Shown here: piece by piece, positions 8,345 to 48,265 of the stretch
How the letters are laid out: the number at the start of each line of letters is the position of its first letter
Position numbering within the stretch: position 1 is the first letter of the stretch
NCBI GenBank assembly: GCA_003344405.1
Contig: NOWV01000018.1
Span: 62,001 to 126,000 of the forward strand
DNA: 64,000 nucleotides
Source: Trichoplax sp. H2
Taxonomy: Eukaryota
Direction of reading: 5' to 3'
Made by a program: the position numbers and the translations under genes
Notes under the pieces: model-generated
Seen by the model: the letters and a program-made list of their open reading frames with translations, nothing else
Told to the model about the DNA's origin: nothing
Database searches by the model: none

Positions 8345-9700
8345 TTAAGTTAATATTAATCCTTTCACTGTATGTAATCGTAACTCTTCAATCTTATGTA
8401 ACAGATCTCCTTCAAGTATTTTTTGCTTGGTTTCTAACATTGTACGCATTGTAGCTAAGTTATCATGAGTTGCATCGAATCCTTCTCTACATTCTTGGCG
8501 AAACTTATCTATTAATGTGTTTTGCTCTTTTTTGAAATGTTGAACTTGTTGCTGGGCAAATTGAGTTTGCTGTTCTTGTAATTGCTTTATTAATTGTTTA
8601 ACTTCTTTTTCTAATCCTTTAGCTATTTGAACCATCTGATGTTCTAATTCGTTTTGTCGTAATTCTGATCGGTTGGAGATGACTTCAGCTTGGCGAATAA
8701 ATTCCATAACTTGATTAGCTTCTGTTGTCATCCAACGCTTAATGTGATCAGTTTGATCTTTAGCTTCTTGCCTTATAACAGTATATTTTTCTTCCCATTG
8801 GGTGTCTAAATGTTTCAGAGTATCGTCTAAGGAATCTTTCTCGCCTAGCTGTTGGGATAGCTGTTGAATAGTGGTCTTTTTCTCTGTTAAGTTTTGGCGG
8901 CAAACATTCATTTCATCTTCTAACTTAGTTAGTCGCTGATTTACATGATTTTGATTTGTTGATTGATTCTGTCTTATCGCATCAATTTGTCTACCTTGAT
9001 TTTCTAATTCATCTTTCAAACGCCTAACTTGACTTTGTAATTCTTCTCTTTGGTCGTGTCCATTGTGAACTTTAGTTCCAATGATATCTAGTTCTTCTTT
9101 AATTTGCTGATGACTACGTATGAGATTATCAACTCTAAATGTATCTTTTTGGGTATTTAATTGTAAATTACTTATTTTATGTTGTTGTGTTCGAACAAAA
9201 TTATTATAATGTTTGACTAAAGGCTCTATAGTATTGCTTAAGCGTTTGACAATAGTAGCAATGGCTTGAATGAAATCTTTTAACCACGTTCTAGCAGATT
9301 TGCTATTCTGGTGAGTAGCTTGTATAAGATTTAGCTGATTGACGAGATCTTCTTGAACATCAAGGGCAAAATCAATTAGTTCTGATGTTGTTTTTTCATG
9401 TTCTTCTATACGACTATCTAGTGATATTACTGGATTATGATTATAATTATTTGGTAAACTCTGCGATACTAGTGCATCGGCGTTATTAGCAAATACTGGT
9501 GGTAATCGATTAGAAGTCGATGCATATAACCGATTTTGTTTATGGCTATTGTTTGCTTTTAGTAGTGATTGTTTCTGTAACAATCGTGCGAATCTATCTC
9601 GTTTTTGTTGGCCATGATTATCTTTTAGCTCTGTGAAGGCCATACTTTGATCAGTAGGTAAGCTTGAATTTTTGAAATCTTCGTTTATCAATTCTATCAT
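8345..9700 (-). CDS. FAM81: FAM81-family coiled-coil protein, uninterrupted ORF (ATG at 9700 or 9643; ORF-track start 9775 is not an ATG)
   Basis: About 450 aa, Q/E/K/L-rich coiled coil. LDSRIEEHEKTTSELIDFALDVQEDLV..SARTWLKDFIQAIATIVKRLS matches the FAM81 N-terminal block (LEDRI..HEKTT..L...A...I...ARLFLEEHI..ITAIVK.L). The C-terminal ECREGFDATHDNLATMRTMLETK matches the FAM81 C-terminus. Recognised from memory of the family, no search run. Confidence 0.75.
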   Translation of the reverse strand: MIELINEDFKNSSLPTDQSMAFTELKDNHGQQKRDRFARLLQKQSLLKANNSHKQNRLYASTSNRLPPVFANNADALVSQSLPNNYNHNPVISLDSRIEEHEKTTSELIDFALDVQEDLVNQLNLIQATHQNSKSARTWLKDFIQAIATIVKRLSNTIEPLVKHYNNFVRTQQHKISNLQLNTQKDTFRVDNLIRSHQQIKEELDIIGTKVHNGHDQREELQSQVRRLKDELENQGRQIDAIRQNQSTNQNHVNQRLTKLEDEMNVCRQNLTEKKTTIQQLSQQLGEKDSLDDTLKHLDTQWEEKYTVIRQEAKDQTDHIKRWMTTEANQVMEFIRQAEVISNRSELRQNELEHQMVQIAKGLEKEVKQLIKQLQEQQTQFAQQQVQHFKKEQNTLIDKFRQECREGFDATHDNLATMRTMLETKQKILEGDLLHKIEELRLHTVKGLILT

Positions 9701-10939
9701 GAATATAAAAGTGATTGGGAATAGTAAGTAACTCTGTTGTTCTACATTTAAGCAATAATAATGGATATAAATCAAAAAAATTCAAATAATAAAGTAAAAA
9801 ATAGATAAGAATTAAATATTACAGCTATTCTATTACTATATAAGTAATCTTTTGTAGTAATTAATGTTATCAAACAAATAAGATGTGCTTCGATCCGCTA
9901 CATTTATCAGATTAAATTGATTTCATGAAGCATGGCATTAAAAATGACAGCCTAGAGTAGATAAAAATATGGCGGTCTTGAGTTTCTTACTATTGATCGA
10001 ATAAAATTGGATTAAACCATATTTAATAATAATACATTTTTCAAGACTGTCGAACGGTAGTTTATTGCTAGGTAACATTTTGATAAATCATTACCTTAAG
10101 GCTTGCATTAATTATGGTTTTATTAAATGAAAAATGAGCGATGATTGTAGATTTTTAGCAGCATTTGAATAAAATAATTACCGTTGTGATTTCATTTGAT
10201 CGTGTAGTATTTCTTATTCGATTGTAAGTCCAGCAATTTTGATTGTGGTCAATGTAGGATATATGCTTATATTAATTTTTTTAGGGGTAGTTTTTTACTA
10301 TCAAATTACGATTTGGACACTTGAATATACTATTTAGGCAAAATTGCATTGCAAGAAAAGTCGAAATAGTCCAGTGAGATTGATGGATCATGAAGCCTAC
10401 TACAGTAGCATTAGACTCAATAATGATAATAAATGGCAAGGTTGTTTAGATTAAGCCTATCAACTGGAAGTTGTAAACTATCCCGGCATGAATTTTTACT
10501 GTATCATGATATGACTCAAGAGGCGTATCAGTAATACGTAATAAAGTAGCTGTCGATCAACTTCTATGTATATATAGTGTATATGCCACCTACAGATTTG
10601 GCACAAGTGGATTCTATGAAGTGAATGTACAGTGAGATTTTGGATAAATCAGTCGCCAGTGTTACTATGGCAACAAGGCCTCTACTACTTTTTACGGACG
10701 CTGTATCGTATTTGTTATGTATATCACTATCTAGAGTTAATGTAAGACTTACTACTGTATTAAAAGCATTTGAAGATTAGCTCTACTCTCAATTAGCATC
10801 TATTATAATAGTAAATATATCGCATTAGGCACACGATTGAATAAATAACATCAGACCGGCTAAATTTCCTAGATGCAAGTATGGCTACTAGAAAAAGAGC
10901 GAGTTAATTTCTGTGATCTATTCGGCACCCCTGGTGTAG

Positions 10940-12030
10940 TGTGCGTACAGTACAGTACCACTAACCCTAGTACATACAGTACAGTACAGTACAGTACCAC
11001 TAACCCTAGTACTGTACATAATTTAGATAGTACTGTAGGGTCCTGTCACCCATGTGGACAAACTTATGAGCACTATACTGTACAGTGTGCAGTAGAGCCG
11101 CAATTTAGTAGTCCATTCGCAACATACTGTACTGTACTGTACGCAATCAGGTTGACCATAATTGGCAAAAGCAAGTCCGATAACGCCGATCACTTCTCTA
11201 GTGGCAAAACAGTAAACTGAACAGTACTATACTATACTGTATAGTAAAGCTTATACTACACTTACTATACATTCTGTGAGATATGCTGTAGTATCCTTCT
11301 ACCGTCCTAAATCGAATGACGATAATATGTTGTGAATTATTTTTCATTCACATTAAAGTAATGACTAATATTGTAAGTCTTGCATTAGTAGTCAAAGCAG
11401 TCCGATAACGTCAATCACTTCTCTATCGGCAATACATTATACTGTACACTGTACAGTACTGTATAGTAAAGCTTATACTACAGTACTTACTGTACCTGCT
11501 GTACTGGAACTGTGAGATACTGTACAGTATACTGTACTGTACTGTACTGTACAGTGTACAGTAGTATCCTTCTACTGTCCGAAATCGAATGGCGATAACG
11601 TTTCACTATGTTGTGAATTATTTTTCGTTCATATTAGAGTAATGACTCATATTGTAAGCCTTGCATTAGTAGTCACAGCATTTAGCACCTGCTGCAGTAC
11701 ACTCTATGAGCATGGTATCGTCGATAGACTAAGGACCAATGACACTTTAGAGCATACTTTAGGGGTACTTAAGTACTTTAGAGTGAGTCTTTTATTCCAT
11801 TGGGGTTGAAAAATTCTCAACGACTTACAGTACTGTACAGTGTACAGTACAGTACGACTGTAAAATGAGTGGACTGTAGTAAGTCGTTTACTAGCACAAG
11901 AAGGCAATAGGGGCTAGACCTGAATTTTACTATACAGTACTGTACACTGTACACTGTACACTGTACAGCATACCGTACTGTACAGTGTACAGTACTGTAC
12001 ACGTCCTTTGTGGTACAGTACTGTGCGGTG
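10940..12030. repeat. TACAG/CTGTA/GTAC micro-repeat array in the FAM81-IQGAP divergent intergenic region
   Basis: Runs such as tacagtacagtacagtacc, actgtactgtactgtactgtacagtgtacagt and tgtacactgtacactgtacactgtacag. Includes a ~28-bp direct repeat tacagtacagtaccactaaccctagtac at 10946 and 10986. Confidence 0.9.
11168..11675. repeat. Diverged tandem duplication (~227 bp plus ~281 bp)
   Basis: Both copies run aagca(a)gtccgataacg..atcacttctcta..ctgtatagtaaagcttatactaca..gtagtatccttctac..aaatcgaatg..tatgttgtgaattatttttc..gtaatgact..atattgtaag.cttgcattagtagtca. Copy 1 ~11168-11394, copy 2 ~11395-11675. Confidence 0.92.
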
Positions 12031-12218
12031 TGAAATGAGCCAATGAACCTTAAGCAAATGGGGACCCACAATTTGAAATGCAGTCCAATACGGTACTGTA
12101 AGAACACGTAATTAGTACAGCTGGAAGTCCCATAGTGGACATACGTTCAGACTTCATACCGAGATTCAAAATTTTGATCGCTATTTTTTTTTCCAGTTTC
12201 TACAGCACAAATTAGAGG

Positions 12219-15200
12219 ATGGCGCAAATCGGTAGGGGTGAAGTACAAATGAGGCTACGGGAAAAAGACGTCCTTGATCCAGCATTAACGCGACGGGAAA
12301 TCTCAGGTTGACTGACATATTGATCATTTGGATTCCACTGTAATCCAGGCCTATCTCGACGTGTGACCTCCATCCAAATATCACATTGTACTGTAGTGCC
12401 TTTTTTTTTTTTTTCCTCTTGGCTTATTTCAGTCAAATGAATTTAGAATTGAGGATATTGACTGCCCACCAATTCTGAATGATAATGATATGCAAATGGT
12501 GGAGACATCTTTTACGCTATCTCTCCATCAGTTTATTCCTATTTATACTACTATGGGAGATACGCCTTCAACTGATCTTCTACTTACATCTTGATTTTTT
12601 CTTGTACAGTACAGTATAGTAAAATGCAGTTCATCTCCTAGACTTGATAACGTGCAATACTGTACACTGGACAGCATTGCATCGGACATTGCAGTCGTAG
12701 TTGCTTTTTCTTTTTTCCACTATCATGATGAGTATGGCTGTCATTTTATTGTAGTGTTATAAAGTGGTCTAATTAAATTGAATATAGACATCATTTGACT
12801 GGATTACAAGTCTAGCATTAGCTTACTATAGGTCTGAATTGTCCAACATTTTCTTCTTTTGTCATTGAAAAACCATCCTTTAAATGAGGTATTGTAAACG
12901 TTGATTACACCCATTACTAACACTTATTTTTGATTAATTACGATAGGCTTACGTTCTCGTGTCCAAGCAGCAGAAATTATGGATGAAGAACGGCAAAAAC
13001 TCATTGCTTACCAGTACCTTTGTCGCTTAGCAGAAGCGAAAGAGTAAGTAAATCTGTACTATACCATCATTCTTTGTCATCCATGGGAATAGTCGGCAAT
13101 GTAATTAGGCTGACTGCTGTCATCATAATTGCTACGCTGCCAATTGCTTATTCGAGTATGGATAGGCTGTACAGCATTGGTATTGCGTCGAAAATCGACA
13201 CTGTTGCATGTTTTAAATCATTGTAGGATAATTTTGTGATGAGTAGTTTTTTTAAACTGAATCAAAACAGAATTACACTTATCATCTGCTATATGTACTG
13301 TAATACTGCAACAGTGTAGTCCACAAAGTAGCTTTTGATAAAAAAGGCTTTATAGTCAAACACTAGAATGAAGTACTTTCGTCCGATATAGAGTACGCAT
13401 ACGAGCTACGCTGTCACCAATCAAACCCATTATACTCTCCTACTCGTATACATAAAGTAGCTGCAATGCGGTTGCGATAGTGGCAGTTTGAAATAAATAC
13501 AACTTTCCTATGTACCATGATCTAAAGTTGGAGAATACTGTAAAAGTGGGATTACAATCGATCGTGGCAGTAAAGTACTGGTACATAGAATATATTTTAC
13601 AGCATACCAAACACAAAGGTATATTGCTGTATGAATACATCGAATGATTCTATTTATATTTGCCGTATTATTACAGCTGGATTGAGCGATGTATTAGTGA
13701 AAACATTCCGGTATCAATTAGCGAGTTTGAGAATACTCTACGAAATGGCATATTGTTGGCAAAGCTTAGCCACTCGTTTGCTACTGATGTGGTCCCGCTG
13801 AAGAGGATCTACGATGTAGATGAAGCAAAATATAAAGTAAGCAATCTTGCATGATACTTGTTGACTTATTAACCTAAAGTTCAAGTTATATTATGGATTC
13901 GCAATCTGTTTCGAAAAGTGTAAAGGTTTACTGCTTTCCTTGAACGACTTATGATAGTACCTTAATCTTTTCTGGCATTCTAGTAGTCCTTGATCTTGCA
14001 TATGTATGCTGATCGAGTAGTCATACGATGCATGTATATAATACAGTTGACTTTTTTTAATGACTGTGTTAGATTGCCATGATTGTATTATAATTTGTGA
14101 TAATTGATTGAATAGTGCAAGAAATTAACGTAGCGAACTTTTAATGTACCATCGTTAACTATATTTATACTGATATTAGGTTAAAGGATTACATTTTAAG
14201 CATACGCAAAACTTTAATTACTGGATCGAAGCATTGGACAGTATCAAATTTCCTAAGGTACAGTTAAGATATTCCAGTATAGAATTTACATTAATCTTTA
14301 GTCTAGTCGTAATAATTTCTCGTCAATAATAGCCTACACGTTTAAAGTTTGCTAACATGGAGGCATGACCATTGATTAAGTTAAAAATAGGATAGGACAG
14401 TTTAGTGTAAATTTATAATTAGTAGACGTCTTAACGCTATAATTGATGGTGTAGTGTGGTTTTGTATTAAAAGAAAAAGATATAGAAACCAATTTTATGA
14501 TCTCTATCAACTTGTAGGAATTATTTAAATCACATATATTTCTTATCAAGAGTTGGATCATATTATCGCTCGCTATTTGTACTATATAACTTATTATATC
14601 GATTAATCCCTTGTAAATTAATGCTCTTACGATTAAAGCTTGGATTTTCTTCGATATAACCAATGTATCACATACAATATGCCACGTACAATATGATCAG
14701 TTACTATACCATTTAAGAACGAATGTTTCTATTTTGAAAATGGATTGATGAAGATTGTGATCGGCAAAAAAATATAGCGGATCAAAATCTTAATACCGAG
14801 GACATTTTTACATGATATGTCATAGATGGTATTGGTAGATTACGGTACTATACTTTCTCTCATTAGTTTAGGTGAAATTATCACAATGGTGTGAGAATTA
14901 AATATCTGTGCGCTGGGCTATATGGAGATGTTATTTTAGTTCCCGTTATACCATGATTAATACGCATAGATGCAGTTGAAATGTATTTCGTCTGTAGCTA
15001 CTGTTGTAACGTTGAGTAACTTTGATCATTACAGATTTTTCATCCTGAAACTGTCGACTTATACGATCAGAAAAATATGCCCAAAGTAATCTACTGCATT
15101 CATGCCGTTGCGTAAGTTGTTCGTCAAATATTATTCTACTTAGCTTAACAAGATCGTTTATTATATCAATTCTTGGATCTTTAAAGATTACTTACCATGT

Positions 15201-18200
15201 TCAATGATTAGATTATACTGTTACAAGCTTGGTAAATCACCTGCTATTACTAGCCTTAGTGGTAAAGTTACTTTTACAGGTATGCATTTTTTTCAATTTG
15301 TAACGTATTTCTACATCTTATAAAATATTTTAAAAGTTACAGAATGGAATCAAATATTAAGTATAGAAAGATAAGTAGTGCTGATATCGGTTATTCTACG
15401 TTAAATTGCGATTCATGTATGTCTGTGTGAGTAACTTTCATTGTACAAGGAAGCAACAAACTTTAATTCTCTTTATTACGTAAACTAGATGAAGAAATTT
15501 TAGAAAAGAGCGTTGAACTAAAAAGCCGTGGTGTGAAGATTCCGATGTTCAATCGTATTGGCGGGATTTTAACAAAAGAGGTATACCTATCTAGATTATA
15601 GCTATCCGTAAAGGATGTACGAGTATTAAATTTTTTCTCTTATTATTATCGCTAGCAATTTATTCAATATCATTATCCTATTCGACTATTTTATTTCTAG
15701 ATAAAAGTAGACGATGAAACTTGTAAGGAGATAGCATTTTCATTACCTATCAGAGCTGTCAACGTTATAACATTATAGAAGACATTGTAATAATTATAAA
15801 CTGTTTAGTTTTCAAGGCAATTGTAGCAGTAAATCGCGCAATAGATGATGAAGACGCGCCACAAACTGTAGTTGCAATGAATCATATCGCTGCAAGATTG
15901 GTTGACATAGATCCAGATTATGCTGATTACTATCAAGAAAAATTATTTACGGCTAAAAATATCAAAGTATCAGAAGCGGCTACAGATGAAATGGAAGATA
16001 ATACAGAGGTTAGCTAGTGTTTTAGTTTTTGTTGTTCATACATAGATTTGATACTGTTATTGATATATCTTTATTCTCCATATGTAGCTTACTGAAGAAG
16101 ATTATTATAAGACAAATCTAAAGCATGACCAGATTCAGAGTATTGTCAGTGAAGTTAACGAAGAAAGAAAAGATTTCGAAAGTAAGTTTATAGCGCAAAA
16201 ATTTATAGTATTAATGGTCAGTGAATGGTTAAATTTTTTTTCTGTTGTATTTATTACAATCAAGTGAATATGGCATTGCAAGCAGTTATCGACTCCATCG
16301 AAGATGGAGATTTGTTAAGGGCTCTTAAAAATCCGCTTCTACTGTTTTCGGGAGTTGATTCCTCAATCATACATATATACAGAAATCATCTTATGACTCT
16401 GAAGGCAAAGGTATGTCTTTTAAGTAGTATTAATTTTAGTTGATATAGTGTAACTATCAGCCATTATTAATTAAATGTCAGGAAGAAATTGTTTAATTAT
16501 ATTTTAATGTTACTATTCTAGCGTAATCAGGAAGATGCACAGATCACTTATGATGACATTCAACTTACAATTAAGAATGCTAATGCAGAGATAAAGAAAA
16601 TGAATTACCAACAGTCTATTTTACAGATTCTTAACAACTTACTTGACAGTAATCCTGTAAATTGTGCAAAATTAAAGGAATGCCTGGAAAATGAATATTT
16701 CGAATTTAGCAATCTTAATCCTGCATTCATTGAACAGTATAGTATTGTAATGAGGCGTGGTCGTTTAGAAAAAGTTGTCATAAATGGCTATGGGGAAGAA
16801 GGTTTGTTAACATCTGACGAAATACAGAGTTTAATTAATCAGGCTAATCTTTTGCGCGAATTAAACGATGCTCTGGATCGAGAGCCAACCGATAATCAAA
16901 AATTGGAAGAATGTCTAGGATCGGACATACTTGGATTGCGTGACGTGGATTTCGTATGGCTGGAAGTTTATTCGATCTGCTTGAAAAACAGAAGAATGGA
17001 GAAGTTAAAAATTTATGGTAACGGTAATAAAAGTCTTTTATACCTGGATGAACTTCAACGTCTGATATTGCAGACTAACTGGTTGATCATCTTAAATGAG
17101 GCTCTGGATAAGAATCCTTCTGATGAAAAGAAGATTAATGAGTGTTTATTGTCTGAATATATAGATGTAGATGATGTTAACTCTGATAATATAATGCAAT
17201 ACATTACGATGCTTAAGTTACGTAAGAAAGAAAAATCGGCTACTAGCAATGATTTTAAAGAAGTAATGTTGACTGTTAAAGACATTCAGGTTATTATTTC
17301 TCGTGAAAATGCGCTCTTGACTTTGGATCGAGCGTTGCAAGCAGAACCGATTGAAATTGCGAAGCTGAGAGAGTCTTTAAGATCGAAGGTGTTAAATTTT
17401 GCAAATTTACGTATGGAGATATCCTCAATGTATGCTGCTTCGTTGAAGGAGGGACGTGATAAAAAAGGCGTAATTAGTGACGACATTCTTCGTGAGAATG
17501 AGATACAGTGTTGTATTGATGAAGTGAATGCATTAATTGCTTTAAATGAGTGTATCATTGAAGATCCCGTTAATATGGAGAAATTGAAAGGGTATCTATG
17601 TGACGATGTGCTTAATTTATCGGATGTAAACGTGGAGAATTTATTTTTATACGCACCCTCATTAACAACGAAGAGAAAACAAAAAATGAAGGATTATATT
17701 GATCCCATTAAAAATCTTTTAAGTAAAAGCGAGGTGAATCTAGTTATTCATTTTTCAAATATCATTGTTGCTATCAACGAGGGTTTAGAAAACTATCCTT
17801 CCAACAAAGAACAGTTTAGTAGCTGGATACTAGATGAAACATTAGCGTTCGATGGATCACAGTCTCATCTGGTTACGCTGTACGTCGAAATATTAAAAAG
17901 AACGCAAAAGGAGAGATTAGGTAGTGATGAAAGTTTCTTGAATTATTTGGATATCCAGAACTGTATTACTCTTGGGAATGAAATTCACGATGCAAATGTC
18001 GCGCTAATTAAATGTGTTGCCAAAGTTAATGCAACAGTCGAAGCGGAAGACCATGAAGCTGTATTATTGGCTTTGCAGAGTGAAATTCTGTCGTTAAAGG
18101 AAGTAAATCCGGAACAAAGCACTGGCTATTTGACATCGCTGAAGGCGGCCAAAGACGAGAAAATTTCCGATTGTCAAAATGGTTGGGTCAAGCACGAGAT

Positions 18201-21200
18201 CGAAATTGGCGGTCACATATATTATAACTTATCTACTGAAGATTTCATGTATGATGCTCCTGAAGGTTACGTATCAAATGGAAGGTTTCTGACTAAAATT
18301 GAAATTGAGGTCAGCGCTTCTATAATTAATTTTTAGAGAATTTACTGCAGTATTATAATTGTAAATTTTTATTCTCATTTCAGCAAGCACTTATAGCTGA
18401 AAATGAGCGCTACAACTTATACGACAGGCAACTACCGCAAATTATTGCTATTCAAGTAAGATCTATAGTGGCTTCTATTCCGGTATTGAAGGTGATTGAA
18501 ACAGGTCTCTTCTAATTTACTTAGGCTCTTGCACGTGGCTATCTTGCCCGGAAAGTTATCAAAGAAAGAAACTATGAGCTAAAATGCTTGCTACCGGCTG
18601 TAATTCAGGTATACTTTGAAGAAAACGTCTTACTGTACTTAATTACATAGATTTAGTAATATAGATCGTATTTAGAAATTTACATCAGCTAAATATCTCT
18701 TTCTTACTTTTAATAGATTCAGGCTGCTTGTAGGGGATATCAACAAAGACGCGCCTATTTAAATAGACTAAAATATTATGCAATAAATGTAAGTATTGTT
18801 TATATAATATAAAAATGTTAGCCTTTGACTTTTTAAAATTTTGATAAAAATTACTATTGACTTCTAGGAAAAGGCAATCATAAAAATGCAAAGCGTATTT
18901 AGATGCTTAAAAGTTCGGAAATACTATGAAGGACTAAGTAAATTTTATTTTGTTATAATTAAAATTTTAAAAAGTTTAGGAATATATAATATCATCTTAC
19001 TTATCGACATTGCTATTTTTTTATGACACATTGCTAGAATCACTCGATGTCCCGTTTGCAGCAATTAGCATGTTCGTTTACTTACTTGACGAAACTCAGA
19101 AAGATTTTAACGAGGAGCTTGGTACGTTATTAAATTATGATGAGATTAAATTTTGTGATACTATGCAATAATACCGCTTATATTCTGTAATCTGTATTAG
19201 AATTACAAAAATTGAGGTCTCACATTGTGACAAGTATTCGAGCCAACTTGAAGCTAGAAAAAGACTTAAGTTCAATGGATGTGAAGATCGGTTTACTTGT
19301 CAAGAATCGAATCACATTGCAGGTATAATCACTAGAGTTGTATTATAGTGAAGCTTTTAAAAGTAACATACGTATGTATATATATCAAAGGAAATCTCTT
19401 TTAAATTGAAATTTTGTAGATGATCAGTAATTATACAAACGATTTTATTACAGGACGTAGTCCATCAAAATAGAGCACTTAAGAAAATTAATAAAGATGT
19501 TACAAATGTGAATGGGATCGATGTATTGATAAAGGAGAGAACGCACCAATTAGAGGTAGCACAATTATCTTGATCAAGTCATTACATTGTATTTCATTAA
19601 TTAATTATACAAGTATTACTGTACTAACAGACAATTTATCATTTCGTTAAGGGATATCAAAGTTTGTTTTATCTATTGCAAACTGAGCCGAAATATCTAG
19701 CAAAGTTAATATTTGAAATGCCTCAGAGTCGTAGCAATAGATTCGTCGAAACAGCCATCTTAACCATATTTAATTACGCTGCAAATACCCGAGAAGAATT
19801 CTTACTTATTAAATTGTTTAACACGTCCTTACAAGAAGAAGTATTGTAAGCACAATTACTTCTATATAATTGTGATAAAGAATGATATCATAATAACCTT
19901 GGCTATTATTTCTTATAGGAATCGTGTTAATTCAATTGAAGATATTGTTGAAAATAATCCTTTAGTTGTTAAGTTGGCCGTCCAGTTTAATAGGTTGATT
20001 TTGTGAATAATTAATATATTAAAACTAATTTTATGACCATTCTTATAGTCCTAATGCATATGAATTTATCAAGTAACTGATTATTATGTTAGAGGAAATC
20101 GAAGCCAGAATTGCCTAAAAGAAATTTTTGGCTCCGTAATTCAGCCTGTCATTAACAGCAAGGATAGTTATGATCTAGACCCAATGAATATTTACAAGGC
20201 CTGGCTTCACCATTTAGAGTCAATTTCGGGAGAAGCTAGGTATTATACTTTATACTTTAGCAATCCCCATATCTTTTATTTTGTAACATGGTTAGTGATC
20301 ATTCTATTTTAGTCAATTGCCTCATAATATTAATACGGAACAAGCACTTAAGTATCCTGAAGTTAAAAAGAAACTTGCAGAATGTATTAACAAATTAAAA
20401 GCCTTAATTGCCGATATTGTAGGAGCAATTGTACCTGCAGCCGCAAAGCTACCGTAAGAAATTATTTTATCAGATTGTACATTACCATCTGGTCTTTTAA
20501 CGCGCTGTGATGAAGTTATACTGTTCTAATCTTTGATTTATGCAATGTTTTCTACATTCCGACTTGCGATTGTAATCGATAATTTTAGATATGCGTTGCG
20601 CTGTGTTGCAATGACTCTCAGGAAATGTCTAGAAAAGAAATTTCCAAACGATAAAGACATTGCCTTAAAAGTTAGCATCTTGGGATAGATCTTTTAATTC
20701 CAATGCTTTACAGATAAATACTTAAAAGTAAATACGTAACTGTTTAATTATAGGCTGTAGGACATTTCATAATATGTCGTTATATGCATCCTGCTTTAAT
20801 TGCTCCTGATGCTTTTGACGTTATTCCATTCAATGTGGAAAACCCTTTAACTACTCATCAAGTAGGTTTATACCTGTTCATGGTACTGTTATTATTAAAT
20901 TGTTATAGCTTTTACTCGTTTACTTAAATTATTGTACTTTCAGAGACATTGTCTTGCTTCTGTTGCAAGTCTTTTACAACGAGCAGCAATAAATAATACG
21001 GTAGGCACTTTTATATCTGCTATTATGGCTGTGTACAACAGTTGGATTAAATAATTATTGATCTTTTTACTATGGCGTAAAAAAGTTTGGTAACGAGAGT
21101 CCATACTTAAGTTCAATAGATGATACTATATCAGAATCATTTGCGAAACTACGGTAAGTGTTTTTAGATTTTGTTCTTAAAGTTTAAATTGCCTTTAGTA

Positions 21201-23233
21201 CCGTAGCAATCGTACTTATGACAACTATAAATATAGTATCATGCCTCTGTCTTTATTAGAGCATTTTTGTGCGAAGCATCGACTGTGGAAGAGCCAGGGG
21301 AACGCTTTCAATTAGATCAATACAGTGAATATGCAATGCTTAGAAAACCAACTATTTACATTTCTATCAGAGAGATTTGTAACATTCATAAGGTTGTGAT
21401 ACAGATGCCGAATTACCTCATTCTAGTATGTAATAAGTTTTGAAAAAGATTAATTCCGATTGTTACAGTTAGTAGCCGACTTTGAAAATGAAATTGCACC
21501 AAACACCGATGATCCACTTCGTGAAGTTTTATCTGACCTAGGCTCACCTTTATCTGAATCTGAGTTAATCGGTTAGTCGTCAATGATTTATCTTGTTGTT
21601 AATGTATTGAGTTACCAAATGAGTTCTTTCATAGATGTGCCATCGGATACAAATGATCCAATTGCTATTGATGCTGTTAGAGAAGATTTGGCCAAGACTG
21701 AAGTTTGCTTGACATTAACTAATAGATTTGATATTAAAGGGGATAATAGGACGTCCGATGTATCATCCCTATTTAACGGGTTAGTTAGATAAAACAATGC
21801 TAAAAGATAATGAATTATAGATGGCTATTTATTATTTATTATAAATGATGATATATCCATGTTGGCTATAGGACTAAAAATTTAACAGCGGACGTGATCC
21901 GCGTTCAACGAGGATCAACCCTGGCTAGTATACTGGATACACCTTCGTCGAAGGAAGAAGTTAGATACAAGAATAGATTTTTATTTATTCTTTTAAATTA
22001 TTATGAAAATAATATATCCATACGTTAACAATTTCAGTCTGAGAAATATAAAGCCATCATCAGCAATCGAGCTAGTAAGATTGCTTTAATCAGCCAGGTA
22101 ACACAAAGTCAAGTGAAAGGCACGCAAAAGAAAGAACCAGGACCTGAAAAACAGTACGTCCTGTTTTGTTTATATATCTGTGATTCTTTAAACATATAAT
22201 TTGAAGCAGTTTATTACAGTATAATGATCGTTATTGTATTATGACTTGCTTTATTCGTAAATTCTGTTTTATTGATTTTTTAGTGCGTCACTGGAGAAAG
22301 TTAAGATTAGAATTAAAGAAGGTTTGCAAGTACTTGAAGAAAAAGGTCTTACCTCTTCTAAGAATGGATACGGATCTGTATTAAGGGAAATTGCAAAGGT
22401 AGTACGGGAGCTTAGATTAATTTGAACGGAATACAATTATCATCATGCACCAATAAGAAAAATGGGTCATCATCTTTTTATCCAGGATATACTTAATAGA
22501 CGGTTATATCGAAAAAATCGTAAGATTGAAATATTAAGACTGCGTGAGGCTCAGGTAGTCTTGGATGACAAGATCAAAGATTATGTTGAACAAATGGATT
22601 ATTATAATAAGTATATTAAGACTTGCATCGAAAATATGGCCTTGTCTAGTAAAAAGTTAGTAAATATTTTAACTAGAAGCTACTTACGCTATTAATTCAA
22701 TTTTTAATGGGCATATTTTTTTTCGTCTTTTATCAGGAAAAAGGATAAAAAATCTTCTGCCTTAAAGTATACCGCAGCACGATTGCACGAAAAGAATATA
22801 GTTTTATCGATCGCCGGTTTACAATCACACCAGTGAGTACATGATGAGATTTTCTATCAAAACACAAATATACTCAAAGGTAAATTGTTGTTTGTAGATA
22901 TAAAAATGTAACGATTGAGATTGCATCTACTGACGATTCATCGAAGTTTAAAATCCATGCCAAGATCATTGGAACAACAATGGATTCGATTTTGCTTGAT
23001 TTTGAGGTATGACCTAAGACGTCAGTTCCGATATCTTGATAATATAATGTGTAAGTTACTCGGAAAGCAGAAGCTAACCATTGTCTTTATTGGTTATTTA
23101 TTTTATATTTTTACAGCATTTGCTAGAACTGCAATATGAAGGTATTCCCTCAATTAAAGTATTTAATGCTGTTATGTTTGATGTAAACTCTTTAATCGGT
23201 CTCTTAAATAGAAAATTTTATGGTAAAGATTAG
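12219..23233 (+). CDS. IQGAP: IQGAP scaffold protein (CH, IQGAP repeats, WW, IQ motifs, RasGAP-related, RasGAP_C), about 35-40 exons
   Basis: Exon 1 12219-12306 (MAQIGRGEVQ..., phase 1) joins 12947-13043 (..EIMDEERQKLIAYQYLCRLAEAKE). CH domain WIERCI..FENTLRNGILLAKL..GLHFKHTQNFNYW..FHPETVDLYDQKNMPKVIYCIHA. WW-like GWVKHEIEIGGHIYYNLST. IQ motifs IQALARGYLARK and IQAACRGYQQRR. MDVKIGLLVKNRITLQDV, YQSLFYLLQTEPKYLAKL, RYMHPALIAPDAFD, LKYTAARLHEK, and C-terminus LLNRKFYGKD*. Confidence 0.93.
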
Positions 23234-25129
23234 TATTTTTTCGTATCGGTACTGGTGTGCTTATTGAACTTGTACGTTACTTTATAAAATTTTAATTGGT
23301 AGACATTTTATTTTCTGCCTCTGAATTACTGATTACGCTAATTTCGTTATGCCCACCAATCTAAAATTGCAAGCGATAAAGTATTTAAATGAGATTACTT
23401 AGTTTCCTTAGTGAAATAATTTTAATAAATTTAGATCGTGCATTTTCTGATATCACCGTTATGCGCAAAAGTTTGCCTTCATTTAATTGGATTCATTTAT
23501 ACTCAATATTCAGTTATAAATCAATCTTTGATTGATAATAACTATTATCACATTTAGCCAAAGTTTTATTGCAGATTTTTTGCACCTTATTTATTTACAT
23601 TTATTCTTAATGTGATCAATGGGTTTTTCTGTAGAGGTCACAAAATATTTTCAATTAAATAATATGATTGCGTGATGAATAAAAGAAAGGTAGAACACTA
23701 CTCTAATTGATGTTGTAAAGTATAAATTTGCAGTATAATCATGTGCGTATATGCACGCATACTGTAGTTAGTGGGAATCCCAATTTTCCAAGGTAGGTAG
23801 CTGTATAAAAGTATGCCCGTGATAAAGTCTTCCAAATGAATAGTGCGACAAGAGCTCTGGTTTCTTATTGATTAAATTTAACTTTTGTTATATAAATCTA
23901 TCAATAGACATGCACAATTTTACTTCTATCTACTATCTAGATATCAGTATGATCTATCTAGGAGACTGCACTAACTTGCCTATATTCGAAGTGCAGCCTA
24001 TTATTGTAATCCATGAAATAATCACCCTTGTGGTATTCAATCTATGGCATATAGAATCACATCAATTAGATTATCACAGATTTGCAGAATTGGAATACGG
24101 AATGTCAGGCATGCATTTTATAAGTTAGCGTTTACTATAAAAATGTCAGACTAGACAATTTTGCAAATCGTATACTGTACAATATCCAGGAAAATGTCCT
24201 TCCTGTATATGGTAAAAAGTGGTTGTCCATGCTAGCAGCCGAGTCATTTCGCACCTTTTACCGTCCAAGTGTTTTTTAATACGATAACGAAACTACTGTG
24301 TGATACATTAGATTATGATAGATAATTATGGATTTTTTCTGAAAGGCTGAGGTGTTTTCTTTCTGCAGTATACAGCAGTACTGTACAGTATAGTACAGTG
24401 CAATATGCGTATATTGACTGCATCCTTCAACAAACGTTTACCGGTGTTGATGATGCAATTGTACATGAGGTATCTCGTCGTTGCTGCTCTCAGAAAGGAA
24501 GCGAATACACAGTATGATGTCCTGTTCTAACTGTTGAGTCGTACACACTAAGTAGGTAGCAAAGTATCGCCGATGGCGACATTATTATGGTGCGAAATGA
24601 GAGTGATTGGTCAGGTATATGAGCATACTTATTGTAATTACTCACTGTCATCCATGTGTCTTACAGTATACGCCTACCTATTGCTGAATTGTACTACACA
24701 GACTGCTAAGAAAAAGTGGATAGTAAACAAAAGTGACAAGAGAATTGGCATGAAAAATTACGTCGGCAAAGTACTATAGCATTTCACTGCATGTGCGCTA
24801 AAAAATGATTCCATTTCAATGTCGGTAGTGTACTACATGTCCGCGTGGACTCTGTGGTGCAATGTAAAATGTAAACAAATAAAAACAACAATAATAATAA
24901 TCTGAATGCTGTGCCACTGGATTCATTTTATCAACAGGGAAGCAGGCAGAAAATGGTTTACCATGAACTAAAAGGGGAAAATGAATGGTAAAACACTGTA
25001 GTCAATAACATTGGAAACGCCGAAAATGTTCATTGATGACGAATTGTGATTTCTGAGTTGCTTAAATCTACCGTTTGTACTGACTGCAAAATCAATCAAT
25101 CCCACCCAAAAGAGTAAAAGCAGTTTTTG

Positions 25130-25900
25130 ACCTACTGTACTGTACAGTAGTCCCACAGTACTACACAACGGCCTGCGTTACCATTGTGCCTACTGTACTG
25201 TACAGTGTACAGTATGTTGCGCAATGTGCATTTTATATACTGTACAGTGTACAGTACTGTACTGTACTGGCCACTCACGGACTACTAGAATGTCCTCTTC
25301 CAAGTAGTCCGAACACTTGGAGTACAGTGTACAGTACAACGGCACAGACTGTAGCCAGTGTACTGTACATTGTACTGTAAGTAGAAAGAGACCCGTACAG
25401 TGTACAGTACACTGGTACAATGCAATACTGTACTGTAGTGTAGTCGCTACTCACCAAAGGAATGAAGAAAAATCACTTTGAGCGATGGCACTCGCTCACG
25501 CTTGACGTGCTGTGCTGTTCTACATTGAAGGCACGGTCATATTGTAGCAACCAAGTCAAATAATCGAGGTTTAAATGAGATATGTGAGGTCTTACTTGTT
25601 TTGCCTGCAGGTCAAATTTGACAAAAATTACCTGTAGACTGTAGTGTAAATAGTGTACTGTACAGTACAGTATTTTACAGTCAAGTACAGTACTGTACTG
25701 TACAGTGTACAGTAGACTTCTGCATACAGTACACAGATCTTTTTTCCCTTCAAGACAATCATCAGGATACTGGTACTTACAGTACTTTTCACTGTACAGC
25801 ACTGTACCACGCCGTACTGTAGGTAGACCTGATCATGACGATCTCCAAGTGGACGATTACAGCGTGGTACTGTATAGGCCAACTGTAGTGTACAGTACCG
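25130..25900. repeat. TACAG/CTGTA micro-repeat array immediately upstream of the CRTC start
   Basis: Dense tactgtactgtacagtgtacagta-type runs at 25130-25450 and 25630-25900, ending ~70 bp before the CRTC ATG. Confidence 0.9.
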
Positions 25901-25967
25901 TGTATTCCGCTGACAGATATCCCACCTCAAATACGGTTGTGGACAAAAAAAGCATCCCCAAAATAAA

Positions 25968-28900
25968 ATGGCGAATAACCGTAGATTTGTTGACAGAATT
26001 GCCTTTCACCAGACACGACAGGCCGAAGAAACGGCTGAATTTGAACAAGTGATGCGCGAAGTTAAGACTACCAAAGATACCGCTACAAGGGTACGATTTC
26101 AATTACTTTATCTACTATCACCAAAGGGTTCTTTTTTCCTATTTCTTTTCTATTTTTTGCGGGGGGGAAATAATGCTACAACAACTTCATCAGTGGGTTA
26201 GCGTACTGTATCAACGTGGTGGTACAGTACTACTCTAGCGACTGGTGTATTTACAGTACACAACGGAGTAAAAGGCGATCACGCATCTCCGTGATATTTC
26301 ATGATCTAGCGTTATTTTTACAGTATAGTATTAAAATATCAGCCAGTTCTTCATCGTCGATGACTGCATCATGTTAGAATAAGATCACTTTCTTTCTGGT
26401 AGATTGCCACAAGCTCTTGTCTCAAGTATTACTTTGAAGGGGATTTTGATTATCTTGATGCCTTCTTTCTATTTGTGCTTGCGGTAGCAATCGTTTTCGT
26501 TTGGTCCTTTCTATGGGTTGTCAATGTCAACCTTAAGTGATTATCAATCTTTTCCAAAGTAGATGTACAAATTGTGTTATTTTTACCTTACACAATATAT
26601 CAAGTTGAGTTACCGTTGATGTTACAGCGAGCAAAGTTGGATATTACGTGTACAATTATCCTTTCTATGGGCTATGAATTATAGTTTGTACCCGCAGACG
26701 TTATTTTAAAAATTTTCCATCAGCATAAGACAAGTAGGAACTCACCATTACTCTAGTAGGTAATCCACTTTTCATACGATAACTGCTTGCTTGTACAGTT
26801 AGCGCATTCTAATATCCACTTTTTGTCAACACAGTGGAACGTTCAAAGTTTTAGAAGCAGCAGCAGTCATCCGAATTTCATAATTTTATATAGACTGGAC
26901 GTGTATGGATAGATAGACTTGGTTAGTCGACATCACTAGAGTGGATGCAGCCTAGTAATAATTATACAGATTGAAGTCGAAACGATCTATAAAGGACTGT
27001 AATGTACAGTAGTTGACTGGATAGTAAAGTAATAATAATATTGATGATAGCGATAGCGTGCTCCTCGTTATTACTTAGCATTCTTGATCCTAACTCTGTG
27101 TAGTACAGTAGCGTTTGTATTGTCTAGTAATGATTTTGAGTCTTATTCCATAGGTGAGGATAATTGTTACGTTTACCATAATCTGCCAACTGCCTAAGTG
27201 TTATTAGTGTATCATCGATTCGATTGAAGTTTTATGCGCATTTTAAAATAGATCCAATCCAGCTGCAATGCACCATACTTGTAGATGCGGTATTAGAGGG
27301 ACTAATATCTACTACCTAATTATTGACTGCATTCTTTTTTGAGATTTGAGTTCAAAAGTATTGGTAATCTTAATGAATTGTGCTCTGCATCATATACGGC
27401 GTTATTGACGATTGTACAGCACTCTTATATCTTTCCATTATAATTGATAAAGTAATACCTAGTTTAGAGAAATGAACTACAGTCAGTATTGTATTTTACA
27501 CTCAGATTCAACCGCTATAGTTGGTGTACTGGGGTCAAAAGAAGAAATGGCAAATTGTAGCTGATTTGCTAAAACAGTTTTGGATATTTATAAAAAGTGA
27601 TTAAAAAGCTCTTATGCTAGAAGAATGTACGTACAATACGAATAGTAGAGAATTACTATTGGAGTGGACATAAGCTAGACTGATCACTATATCCTATCAC
27701 CTATTTTTTCTACACTTATTGTCATCCTTTATACAGTGTATCTTGCTTCGTACTTGACCTTAGCCGTTGTACATTGATTGAATTTTGTGATCAGGTTGAT
27801 CGCTAACGAGTGGAATAAGCACTAGACGTTGATCGATTAATTAATTATCATTGCTACGTTGTATCTGCAACACTTCATGATATCCTTGTCCTGTCATAGT
27901 ACATTGTGAACGAGTTATCCAGTAAGTTTGCGCTCTGTTTGTAAACTTATACCTTTCATAGAAAAGGAATTTGCTATCAACCACATCTCTCGTCTCACTT
28001 AATCCTCGATTTATGTAATACTTTGGAAACCAGTAATATTCTAATGAGATGATACTTAAAGAAGGGAGATGGGTGTCGTCGATTGATGTATTTACTGTAT
28101 AGAGTATCTTTTGACTTGTTAATCAATCTACGTAAACGTGCAATTTTTATAGGCTATTACTCATCCTTTACAGTACTATACGGTTAAATTGATGCACGAT
28201 GATAGTAGCATAATCCGAGTAAAATTGAATGTTGTGCATACGGTGATGCAGTTTTATTTTTTTGTTCCTCTCATTTAATTTTGACGTTAATTTTCCCTTT
28301 TAAGATGGGTATCTATACACATTAATTCCTCTTGCCATTGTCTGTTTTTGCTTCCTACACTCATAATGAGTTTTCTTTTCAACAGTTACATCCACCATAT
28401 AGACAACCTATCATTAACAATTGCTACAGAAGTGAATCGCTACCGAATATTGGCGGTGAAAACAATACTATCGATTTACAGGTAAAGCCTTTTCTATTTG
28501 ATACAAGAAAATAGAATATTAACCAATTTATTACATCCAGTATACTTGTACCATCTCCATTGCCCTATGATATGATATCACTGACGGTGACTGAATATTG
28601 CGGGTTGTATCAAGTCATGACCAGGGACTCCTAAAGACAAAATGCAGGATTTTGTCTAAAAGTCCCTGTCATGACTCCGAGACTACTTCCATTCTACTGT
28701 ACTATGTTGGGAGGATGAACGAGTTTGAGTAGACATTTTTGTTGAATTCAATTGATCGATACTGTAGCTCGTGAAATAGAAGGCTAAAAGTGATGTAAGT
28801 CAGCAAGAAATGTCTGGGCAATAAATTGATGATGGATGATAAATGATGAATTGCTGATTATTAATTATAATTATTATTGTATACTCTTTTACCCTCCTGC

Positions 28901-34900: not shown

Positions 34901-37054
34901 AATAATCAAGGTAGTAAAGTTATCCATCACCCAGTTATTAATTCATAGCGCTCCAAAGTAGTACAGTACTGTTAAGTAATTTTGAATAAGATCCTAACTT
35001 GTGAACAATTTGGTTTTTTGATATATTACTAGATTAACGTAGAAAATATATTAAATGCCTTAGAGCTATTATTTTTCTAAGGCAATACAATCTGTCAGTT
35101 AGTATGCTAACGTGATAAGATTATACCTCGTCTTTAAATTGGTTTAAAGGTCTTGCAGTTATTTATCTACGTACCAGTTATATGTAAATTTGATATGTAT
35201 CTATCACTCTTGCTATAATTTTAGTGAGCTAATGAACTAAAAAATCTATTTAGCGGTTACTAATTCTGTGTGATTTTTTATAGTACCAAATTTATTCTAC
35301 TAGTTGTAATTTGTCGAAGATGCTTTCTATACTGTACTGATCGATGATCTAATATTTCTTTTCATTGCCCTTTAAAGCAATGACAGGATCTCCAACTCCA
35401 TCGATAGAGCTATCGCAGCAACTTTGGAAACAGGTCTGTTACCAGCTTGGATAATAAATAATCGTTGAACAGATCACTTACTGACTATTGATAATGATTA
35501 AGATGTATTATTTATGACATGCGAAGATACTGTCATTTTTTAGGGAATTATAGTTCTTTTCTTTTCGTTGCAAGTAATAAAAGAATTACTATCATTTTTG
35601 AATCATAATGCAACAACTATTCTTCGTAAACTCGGTCAATAATTAATTAAGATAACTATTTTATTATAGTCTAATAAGAGGTAAAATTTAGTACCTAGTG
35701 TGATAGATCAAGTCTTACGATATTAGTATAAGAAGTTAAAATACTTATTGAGTACTTTATTTTTGCTATATTTTTTACTTTTTATATACAATGGCCTAAA
35801 ATAATATTATTTCTGTTGATTGTATTATATTATATAGCAGCAACCAGTGGCTTCAGGCAATATGAAAAGGTATATTAATTGATATAATAAACCTAGTGTA
35901 AATAGTAAAAGTAATATATAAATTAGATAGTACGATATGACTGAATTTTCTTTACGTTGTAATTGTTGTTATTAGCCTTCCACCTAAGATGGCACCAGCT
36001 GCTGCTCTAGAAATGCAGCAAATGGGATCGGCGAATACTGGCTCCCTCCCAGATTTGTCTAGCCTTCAGTTCTGCTCGCCGTTAAAAACTCCATTAGATC
36101 CACCGACTGATCCGGATGACAGCGTGGGTAATCTGCGACCAAGCGGAGCGCTTCGTTCTCGTGCAGTTCGTCAAAGTTTACAACGTCGCCATACTCATAG
36201 CGGACCAAGTCCGCTGGTTGGACAACCCCGTCATAACATGCAACAGCTAAATGCTGTTTCAGGAGAGCCTGTGAAACAAGAAAAATATAATCAGCAGTAT
36301 GCACATTATCAACTTCCAAGGCAAATACCTCCAATGATGTATCGACAGATACAGCAGCAACAGCAGTCTCCAACTACTCAACAACCAGTAGAATTCACTT
36401 TACAATACAGTGGTAATAACCCTGTTAACTCTATCAGCCCATCGACTACTATGCAATCGATGGGATCTACTAGACCATCTATGTCCGCTTCGAATAACAA
36501 TTACTATCAGCAGCGGCAACAACAAGTAGTATTCACCAATTCCATGCAGTCGCAACTAGAGCCAGGCGGTTATAATAATTCCGTGGGCAATAATTTATCT
36601 CAGGTAAGTCCTTTATCTTGATCTAAATTCTTCTTCTCTTCGACTTATTCACACTTTTTTGCTAATAATTTTACTAATAGAGACCCTTTTAGCATTTCTA
36701 ATAAATATTTTTTATTACCGTAAAATACAGCAACAAAGGACAGCAAGCAATCCTAATCTTTCTAATGGCTATAACATGATGCCTCGGTCAAATGTAGCCA
36801 GGGATACCGGTAGCCATATACCTAATATTATTTTAACTGGAGAAATTGATGCAAACCAAAACTCTAATTACTTGTCGAATGAAATGGATAAGGAAGATGA
36901 TGTACTTGTTTCCGATGCTAATATGGGTACAGATCTATTTAATTTCCATGATCTCGATTCCATTGATTACGCTAACTTACAGCTATTGGATAATCCCGAG
37001 TTTATCGCTGACTCAGCTGCAGAGGCTGTATTTCGGTCAGATAGACTAGGATGA
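25968..37054 (+). CDS. CRTC: CREB-regulated transcription coactivator (CRTC/TORC), about 9 exons
   Basis: Exons ~25968-26090 (TORC_N: MANNRRFVDRIAFHQTRQAEETAEFEQVMREV), 28386-28481 (SESLPNIG), 31549-31671, 32519-32580 (SPYPLYLSPPAESSWR), 34831-34910 (RTISDSALHRS, SIK/AMPK-14-3-3 site), 35378-35433, 35838-35869, 35976-36603 (GSLPDLSSLQFCSPLKTPLDP), 36731-37054 (IPNIILT PxIxIT-like; TORC_C ..AAEAVFRSDRLG*). Phases are compatible throughout. Confidence 0.9.
28613..28676. repeat. Imperfect inverted repeat / 64-nt hairpin in CRTC intron 2
   Basis: Left arm agtcatgaccagggactcctaaagacaaaat; reverse complement of the right arm agtcatgacagggacttttagacaaaat; 5-nt loop gcagg. Confidence 0.85.
31672..32518 (+). 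other. U12-type (minor spliceosome) GT-AG intron in CRTC
   Basis: 5' splice site GTATCCTAT (U12 consensus RTATCCTTT). Branch point TTTTCCTTAACC at 32495-32506, about 14 nt upstream of the AG at 32517-32518, with no polypyrimidine tract. Phase-0 join preserves the CRTC reading frame. Confidence 0.85.
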
Positions 37055-47490: not shown

Positions 47491-47643
47491 TCAACACAAA
47501 GCGCATCGGCGACAGCTGGACGCTCAGTCAAGTCACTGGTTCAATCCATTGCTATACAGCTTACATATTGCGGAGGAGGCTAAAGTCGAGTTACGATAGT
47601 GACGTTGCTCAAGCAACAAAGATTTCCAAAAATGATGTCACCC

Positions 47644-48265
47644 GTGACAATGACTTTGATGTGTGACATCTTTTTGGCTGACGATGCTGTCTGATGAAGT
47701 AGTGGCACTCCAGTGTAGGTATAGAAAAAGACGACTATGGATTGGAGAGTCGAATTGGGTAAACTGCATGAATTCACTTTGGATTTCACAGGGAAGAAGA
47801 AGAAGTTGCAAGGCACTGCCATGGACTACTAGAAATTACGTGTAGTCCATGACTAAAGCAGAAACTCTTACTGTACAGCAGAGAATTTCTCTTGCAAGGA
47901 GAATCGTGTAGTTCTATTGTATCCTTTGCAAAAATAATGTCGCTATGATGTACCTGTGACAATGGCTTTGATGGGGTGACATTTTTTTGGCCGACGATGC
48001 TGTCTGATGGAGTGGAGGAACTCCAGTGTAGGTATAGAAAAAGACGATTATGGATTGGAGAGTCGAATTGGGTGAACTGAATGAATTCACTTTGGATTTC
48101 ACAGGGAAGAAGAAAGAAGTTGCAAGGCACTGCCATGGAAATTACGTGTAGTCCATGACTAAAGCAGAAACTCCTACTATACACTACAGTAGAGAATTTC
48201 TCTTGCAAGGAGAATGGTGTAGTTCTATTGTATCATTTGCAAAAATAATGTCGCTATGATGTACC
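47644..48265. repeat. Head-to-tail tandem duplication, period 312 bp, high identity
   Basis: Copy 1 47644-47954 and copy 2 47956-48265 both run gtgacaatg.ctttgatg..ctccagtgtaggtatagaaaaagacga.tatggattggagagtcgaattgggt..tttgcaaaaataatgtcgctatgatgtacc. Confidence 0.95.

Follow-up and report, generated by a model that had tools for sequence, protein, structure and literature searches.

Introduction

Arrays of the pentanucleotide ACAGT, the most abundant simple repeat of placozoan genomes, are found at gene fronts. In the genome-wide counts of Wang et al. (2010, Biol Direct 5:18, PMC2871265), ACAGT makes up 78 % of the pentanucleotide repeats of Trichoplax, and 54 % of its sites are reported there to be within 1 kb, and 85 % within 5 kb, upstream of genes. 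A literature search with the motif strings and Trichoplax returned nothing besides this paper, a search for a described promoter motif added none, and no account of how ACAGT arrays arise and are kept was found in the literature. Here, a tandem duplicate pair (copy 1 and copy 2) in array-rich DNA upstream of an IQGAP-type gene of Trichoplax sp. H2 serves as a small internal comparison, in which the array content shifts several-fold between paralogous copies while their flanks have changed by about 9 %. The pair lies in a stretch of 64,000 nucleotides (nt) of contig NOWV01000018.1 (assembly GCA_003344405.1, positions 62,001 to 126,000), referred to as the window, and all coordinates count from its first letter. 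It is fairly likely that the copies of this old duplication differ through ordinary microsatellite turnover, in which repeats are born, expand, and decay.

Microsatellites are born from proto-repeats, expand by slippage, become interrupted, and decay. The pair resembles this life cycle in that one copy has a pure tract that expands and the other a degenerate tract with interruptions, in its recent insertions and deletions (indels) of unit size, and in a mutability above that of the flanks. It differs in that the unit has a self-complementary core and the tracts can pair, and in that the net indel lengths are not multiples of the unit. Templated mutation of quasi-palindromes by intra-strand template switching is known from bacterial and yeast mutagenesis. 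Clustered substitutions and small indels that perfect an imperfect palindrome, as in copy 2, are common to both cases, however the signal is present here in one of seven arrays and is confounded by the self-complementarity of the motif.

Judged by their units, the arrays in and around both copies are the (ACAGT)n microsatellite of Trichoplax, sharing with the repeat of Wang et al. (2010) the five-base unit, the extreme abundance, and the position upstream of genes. Where that report, as far as it bears on this locus, gives genome-wide counts, the present comparison adds the reading of the repeat as a GTAC core with 5- and 7-nt steps, mixed A and T spacers, unit polymorphisms, and turnover between paralogues. 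Another described system is the loop-anchor motif of placozoan housekeeping promoters, which is reported to fall within terminal repeats of 'Mutator' elements annotated by EDTA (Kim et al., 2025, Nature 642:1097, PMC12221973). As described in that text, it too is a repeated, promoter-located motif common to placozoan species and tied to inverted-repeat elements. Unlike those 'Mutator' elements, the locus investigated here has no transposon features that could be found, and neither the text nor the supplement files searched spell out the letters of the published motif.

Results

The tandem duplicate pair

The two copies lie head to tail, with boundaries set at a shared A(A/C)AGCA word that is present at both starts and again after copy 2 (Table 1). 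This word, ACAGCA or AAAGCA, is likely to represent microhomology of the duplication breakpoints. Anchors with 84–92 % identity recur between the copies, spaced by 225, 273, and 281 nt (repeat families D6, D7, and D3), and the unique flanks of the pair have diverged by 8.7 % (12 substitutions in 138 nt). The pair has the features of a tandem segmental duplication, with copies that can be aligned end to end and a junction (11393/11394) crossed by independent contigs of two public runs, X3 and X4. The X3 contigs span 11008–11463 without gaps and the X4 contigs span 11008–11458 and 11565–11931, both including the junction. Because the junction is present in the contigs of two other runs, the duplication is not an assembly artefact and predates the split of these haplotypes. 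The long array at 11464–11564 is bridged by none of the contigs listed for four runs, therefore its exact length rests on this assembly. No look-alike of the duplicated unit was found among the other DNA windows compared.

Public runs under two organism labels both already have the duplication, and similarity to the window is not sorted by label; among the 40 substitution rows listed, X4, which has the other label, agrees with the window at 27, and X3 differs at all 40. Alleles common to the two Trichoplax lineages are described as stemming from a single interbreeding event (Kamm et al., 2018, PMC6057997). At position 11367, copy 1 of the window reads A and X3 reads C, the letter that copy 2 has at the homologous place (11648). 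This suggests either that the ancestral state is retained in another haplotype or that there has been conversion between the copies.

Motif content of the two copies

The copies differ in every motif counted: ACAGT-family 5-mers (10 in copy 1, 68 in copy 2), GTAC (1 and 12), CTGTAC (0 and 9), and GTACAG (0 and 4). Four alignment scorings concur on six separate indels, with lengths, copy 2 minus copy 1, of −1, −3, +3, +11, +37, and +8. An initial annotation, made from the sequence, had put copy 2 at about 54 bp longer; with the boundaries at the A(A/C)AGCA word the difference is 55 nt, and the eight strings that it quoted are all present at the places given for them. Its proposal that most of the differences create the motif is supported for the letters present only in copy 2, of which 48 of the 59 are motif-covered, but the 8-nt indel CGTTTCAC is without the motif and the 11-nt indel is covered at 8 letters out of 11. 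Likewise, the proposal that the motif was gained or lost by several separate indels stands for four motif-linked indels out of six, yet leaves out part of the difference. Among the 24 substitutions between the copies, the motif is favoured in copy 2 by 9 and in copy 1 by 2, the other 13 being neutral; substitutions count as much as indels in the motif difference. The first pair of strings, which had been presented as an insertion into copy 2, reads otherwise over the whole tract, where copy 1 is the longer by 3 nt in all four scorings and is itself a degenerate array.

In this first tract of copy 1, all 29 of the 10-mers are within two mismatches of an ideal array, compared to 2.7 % in array-poor background, and none of 20,000 background blocks equals this. 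Since the tract is a degenerate array, the array at this place is older than the divergence of the copies, which differ here in its purity. At tracts 2–4, copy 1 is weakly motif-like (5 of 37 10-mers), and 1582 of 20,000 background blocks do as well; here, copy 2 may have gained sequence or copy 1 may have lost it, both being compatible with the data. When 37-nt deletions are placed at random in copy 2, only 6.5 % remove sequence that is at least 90 % motif; the 37-nt difference is bound to the array whichever its direction.

Direction was also considered for the substitutions. Starting from copy 2 as the ancestral state, a substitution placed at random reduces the motif count with P = 0.35 and increases it with P = 0.04; starting from copy 1, it increases the count with P = 0.05. 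On these values, nine motif-favouring substitutions are reached far more easily by decay of copy 1 than by neutral gain in copy 2. Gain in copy 2 would need a directional force. A metagenome search for orthologues with a 40-nt degenerate pattern gave no match. A search with a 19-nt word gave 30 loci, in which the match to the window is limited to about 20–31 nt around the seed, and these were rejected as chance matches.

Unit-sized indels between haplotypes

Comparison of haplotypes over 20 kb was based on the 12 indel rows listed out of 38. One of these, at 11840, is multi-locus array noise, leaving 11 single-locus indels. Three of the 11 add GTACA in another haplotype, at 10718 (X3), 24829 (X3), and 28698 (X17 and X16). 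In the window, each of these sites is a lone GTA or GTAC, for which the other allele reads GTACAGTA(C). All three polymorphisms are exact one-unit slippage deletions when read from the longer allele to the shorter (GTACAGTA(C) to GTA(C)), and none of the three long alleles is an exact local duplication. The GTACA allele at 28698 is in the RNA-run contigs of both organism labels and absent from the two DNA runs. The other single-locus indels listed are slippage in homopolymers, (GCA)n, or tandem copies, plus one 20-nt deletion. At 10471, X3 and X17 have a 10-nt insertion, TGTAAACTAC, directly before TGTAAACTAT, a polymorphic imperfect tandem copy.

In X3 there are 2 GTACA events at 81 GTAC sites in 17.1 kb of resolved sequence, at a divergence of about 0.44 % (87 substitution places in 20 kb). 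Scaled to the 8.7 % divergence of the flanks, this gives about 0.5 unit events per GTAC site, or 0.5–6 events for 1–12 sites. Four motif-linked indels are seen between the copies, a number that this rough rate can reach without a burst.

A second tandem duplication in the window (47632–47960 and 47945–48272, period of about 313 nt, about 90 % identity) lies between array clusters and differs by five indels, of 10, 1, 1, 8, and 5 nt. The 5-nt step is at its single motif site, TACTG|TACAG against TACTA|TACAC|TACAG. This duplication overlaps an open frame of 148 amino acids with an internal repeat on the minus strand. Changes by whole units, as expected of slippage, are seen in the three GTACA polymorphisms and in one 5-nt step of the second duplication, whereas the net differences between copy 1 and copy 2 are not whole units. 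Recent changes come as single five-base units, and the view that the motif tracts are mutationally active is borne out by unit steps in 3 of the 11 single-locus haplotype indels listed and in 1 of the 5 indels of the second duplication.

Discussion

Probable repeat turnover within an old duplication

The comparisons are consistent with the old duplication in tandem of a non-coding unit, about 226 nt long, in which there would already have been tracts of the pentanucleotide (ACAGT)n, its GTAC cores 5 or 7 nt apart. Since then, the unique parts have diverged by about 9 %, and the repeat tracts would have turned over much faster. Replication slippage would add or remove whole units, probably aided by hairpins of the self-complementary GTAC core. 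Pure tracts, as in copy 2, may go on expanding, and tracts interrupted by point changes, as in copy 1, may cease slipping and then decay. Gains and losses probably both took place.

Several observations weigh against this explanation. Neutral slippage leaves unexplained the substitution asymmetry of 9 to 2 (binomial p = 0.065) and the greater motif content of copy 2 in three of four tracts. Substitutions are denser in tract 1 (7/27) than in the flanks (12/138; Fisher p = 0.018), which constraint on the flanks would likewise produce. Purging of variants from an array that is still slipping, selection on copy 2, flank constraint, or templated change could each contribute to the asymmetry and to the density in tract 1. 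The indel lengths between the copies (1, 3, 3, 11, 37, and 8) are never a multiple of 5, so each has to be put together from several events and from steps of 5, 7, and 12 nt. The longer GTACA alleles do not exactly repeat the letters beside them and, if they are insertions, are not made by plain slippage. The palindromic order of copy 2 also exceeds what its unit composition would produce (z −3.1; 2 of 300 shuffles do as well). The polarity of gain and loss is not fixed by these sequences, among which no run compared offers an outgroup without the duplication, and the rate estimate is rough, being based on 2–3 events and 12 of 38 indel rows.

Alternative explanations

It has been considered whether templated writing brought clustered substitutions and small indels into copy 2, either by template switching within a strand at the GTAC palindrome (correction of a quasi-palindrome, or fold-back synthesis) or by ectopic conversion from other arrays, with the arms made complementary in the process; this is quite unlikely as the explanation of the pair. 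The motif tracts of copy 2 fold as an imperfect hairpin of 124 nt (−36.6 kcal/mol, z −6.6) and the copy 1 counterpart folds poorly (−7.9 kcal/mol, z −0.5). Because any mixture of A- and T-spacer units is self-complementary, whole GTAC-to-GTAC units were shuffled as the control, with 300 shuffles for each of seven arrays, and copy 2 folds better than 298 of the 300 shuffles of its own units. The seven changes within the 27 nt of tract 1 are clustered and mostly towards the motif, and at 28698 the GTACA allele completes a perfect 12-nt palindrome that, read by eye, can be derived by GTAC fold-back. However, the six other arrays are no more palindromic than their shuffles (47, 51, 91, 98, 113, and 225 of 300 fold as well), the exact 20-nt inverted repeat of copy 2 is equalled or beaten in 104 of 300 shuffles, and in the same by-eye reading fold-back at GTAC predicts the inserted letters in only one of the three GTACA polymorphisms. 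Since motif-rich DNA is inherently self-complementary, hairpin potential does not discriminate templated change from slippage. For ectopic conversion, the matches of 31–33 nt to the arrays at 25.2–25.7 kb are, by a hand estimate, what is expected of a small vocabulary of units. Templated growth is thus possible at this locus, but with one array of seven positive it is no general property of those tested. A stronger form, in which GTAC-core units are actively written by a templated process (fold-back at the core, or copying out of a different array) that adds non-duplicative GTACA at lone GTAC sites and so seeds and purifies promoter arrays, is decidedly improbable; if true, it would account for the three non-duplicative GTACA long alleles, for substitutions that cluster and lead towards the motif, and for the mirrored arrangement of copy 2. 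Ultimately, it would explain the dominance of one pentamer at placozoan gene fronts. That the pair needs the special sequence-directed insertion process suggested in the initial annotation is not supported, given an array that predates divergence in at least one tract, a sufficient rate between haplotypes, palindromic order in copy 2 only, and GTACA alleles that can be read as slippage deletions.

Selection on a protein-binding array, with copy 2 kept motif-rich while the redundant copy 1 decays and the GTAC-core repeats acting as putative sites of a promoter or loop-anchor factor, would explain the asymmetry of the copies and is compatible with slippage acting too, though it is unlikely to be the explanation. 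The nine substitutions favouring copy 2 against two for copy 1 fit with it, however this asymmetry is weak at the p value given above. So do the tie of the arrays to gene upstream regions, as counted by Wang et al. (2010), and their placement here, which is between divergent genes and also a short way upstream of a first exon whose end is at 26089. The motif at housekeeping promoter loop anchors is described as conserved in sequence in four placozoans (Kim et al., 2025), but its letters are given only in a figure, so the comparison with ACAGT arrays is by description. No binding protein or activity data for the motif were found in the literature, and no transcript start was located in either copy among the contigs listed. 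A mobile element in copy 2, either a miniature inverted-repeat transposable element (MITE) or a Mutator-like element with terminal inverted repeats, the palindromic array then being the element itself, is largely refuted and scarcely tenable. It is suggested by the inverted-repeat structure of 11440–11563 and by the 'Mutator' elements annotated in placozoan promoters, whose terminal repeats are reported to contain the loop-anchor motif (Kim et al., 2025). Against this, the extra DNA is split into four or more pieces with shared sequence between them, no direct repeat of 9–11 nt was seen by eye beside the palindrome, no other copy with common non-repeat sequence is present in the window, where the array loci are alike only in about 30–49 nt of repeat units, and tract 1 of copy 1 holds a homologous degenerate array. 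With six separate indels, the conclusion of the initial annotation that the difference is not a single mobile-element insertion is upheld. Palindromic GTAC-core arrays such as those at 11440–11563 or 11933–11999 might themselves be picked up by a terminal-inverted-repeat finder, and such arrays might then be the 'Mutator terminal repeats' annotated at loop anchors. It is also very improbable that part of the length difference stems from misassembly of the long copy 2 array. The contigs listed for four runs leave this array unbridged, and reads are cut at 11516–11564, but the junctions on both sides, tract 1, the AGT, and the partial tract 3 differences up to 11463 are present in independent contigs of two runs, and the array pattern resembles that of other arrays in the window. 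Such an error would alter the size of one indel and not the finding.

Taken as ordinary repeat turnover, the pair carries a caution, in that the length of promoter arrays is labile and short-read contigs break there. The import would be larger if unit insertion were directed, or if the arrays were the loop-anchor motif of placozoan promoter hubs.

Array landscape and gene setting

The window is AT-rich (GC 0.28–0.40), with few long open frames; its animal genes (TORC, CH, and RasGAP domains) and its signature repeat are consistent with a Trichoplax host. GTACAGTAC occurs 49 times in it, against 0.54 expected, with clusters at 10.9–12.6, 24.3–26.2, 29–29.9, and 47.2–49.8 kb, and ACAGT-family 5-mers number 1759, against 655 expected. 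The distance from one GTAC to the next peaks at 5 nt (53 cases; spacer T in 27, A in 22, C in 2, and G in 2), with a second peak at 7 nt (15 cases; AGT in 8 and ACT in 5). The TACAG and TACTG 'orientations' differ by the single spacer letter, therefore a point change is enough to switch them and no inversion is needed. Tandem Repeats Finder reports period 5 at 11530–11552 (4.6 copies, 100 % match) and likewise in the neighbouring arrays. The exact 29-nt repeat in the upstream flanking arrays (Table 1) takes in array units as well as unique sequence and, on its letters, is a very recent small tandem duplication.

Table 1. Positions of the duplicate pair, its motif tracts, and neighbouring features in the window
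Feature	Position	Strand	Basis and remarks
Large exon of a coiled-coil protein gene	8345..9781	-	Open frame on the opposite strand
Upstream flanking arrays	10945..11142	.	Repeat scans; hold the exact repeat GTACAGTACAGTACCACTAACCCTAGTAC (29 nt) at 39-nt spacing, 10945–11012 (family D5)
Tandem duplicate copy 1	11168..11393	.	226 nt; motif-poor
Copy 1 tract 1	11208..11245	.	Degenerate five-periodic array (TAAAC TGAAC AGTAC TATAC TATAC TGTAT); 10-mer test against an ideal array
Tandem duplicate copy 2	11394..11674	.	281 nt; motif-rich
Copy 2 tract 1	11433..11467	.	Nearly perfect array, 3 nt shorter than copy 1 tract 1; alignment and 10-mer test
Hairpin-capable quasi-palindrome from copy 2 motif tracts	11440..11563	.	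Fold as given in the text; self-inverted match 78 %
AGT, copy 2 only	11482..11484	.	3 nt (ACTAC|AGT|ACTTAC); alignment
11-nt indel, copy 2 only	11498..11508	.	GCTGTACTGGA; placement alignment-dependent
37-nt pure array, copy 2 only	11520..11556	.	Placement within 11517–11563 alignment-dependent; unbridged by the contigs listed
8-nt indel in copy 2	11599..11606	.	Without motif
ACAGCA word after copy 2	11675..11680	.	Read directly in the sequence; counterpart of the AAAGCA word at both copy starts
Downstream flanking arrays	11826..12021	.	5- and 7-nt steps
IQGAP-type gene	12934..23696	+	CH, RasGAP, and RasGAP_C exons; splice joints in RNA contigs; downstream of the pair; position given from the first recognized coding exon

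The pair is 1.3–1.8 kb upstream of the first recognized coding exon of the IQGAP-type gene, between it and the coiled-coil gene of the opposite strand, in what is probably a divergent intergenic or promoter region. RNA depth over 10.7–12.0 kb is dominated by arrays from other loci. A GTAAG word resembling a splice donor is retained in both copies, at 11374 (ATTGTAAGTC) and 11655 (ATTGTAAGCC), in the best-conserved 3′ part (92 % identical), and the sequence downstream of both words can be read as having a possible acceptor and ATG at about 12197–12232. The copies might therefore carry putative alternative leader exons.

A scan for known RNA families gave only microRNA-like hairpin matches below threshold (18–28 bits, against gathering scores of 53–101), which were rejected as a by-product of the palindromic arrays. 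A tRNA scan found no genes. The array cluster at 24300–26200 lies between the 3′ end of the IQGAP-type gene, where RNA contigs stop at about 23692–23696, and the exon ending at 26089. In RNA contigs of two runs this exon is spliced over a 2295-nt GT..AG intron to 28385, so that arrays are again found just upstream of a first exon. Further downstream, at 35941–37054, two adjacent open frames match TORC_M and TORC_C, identifying a CRTC-type coactivator gene.

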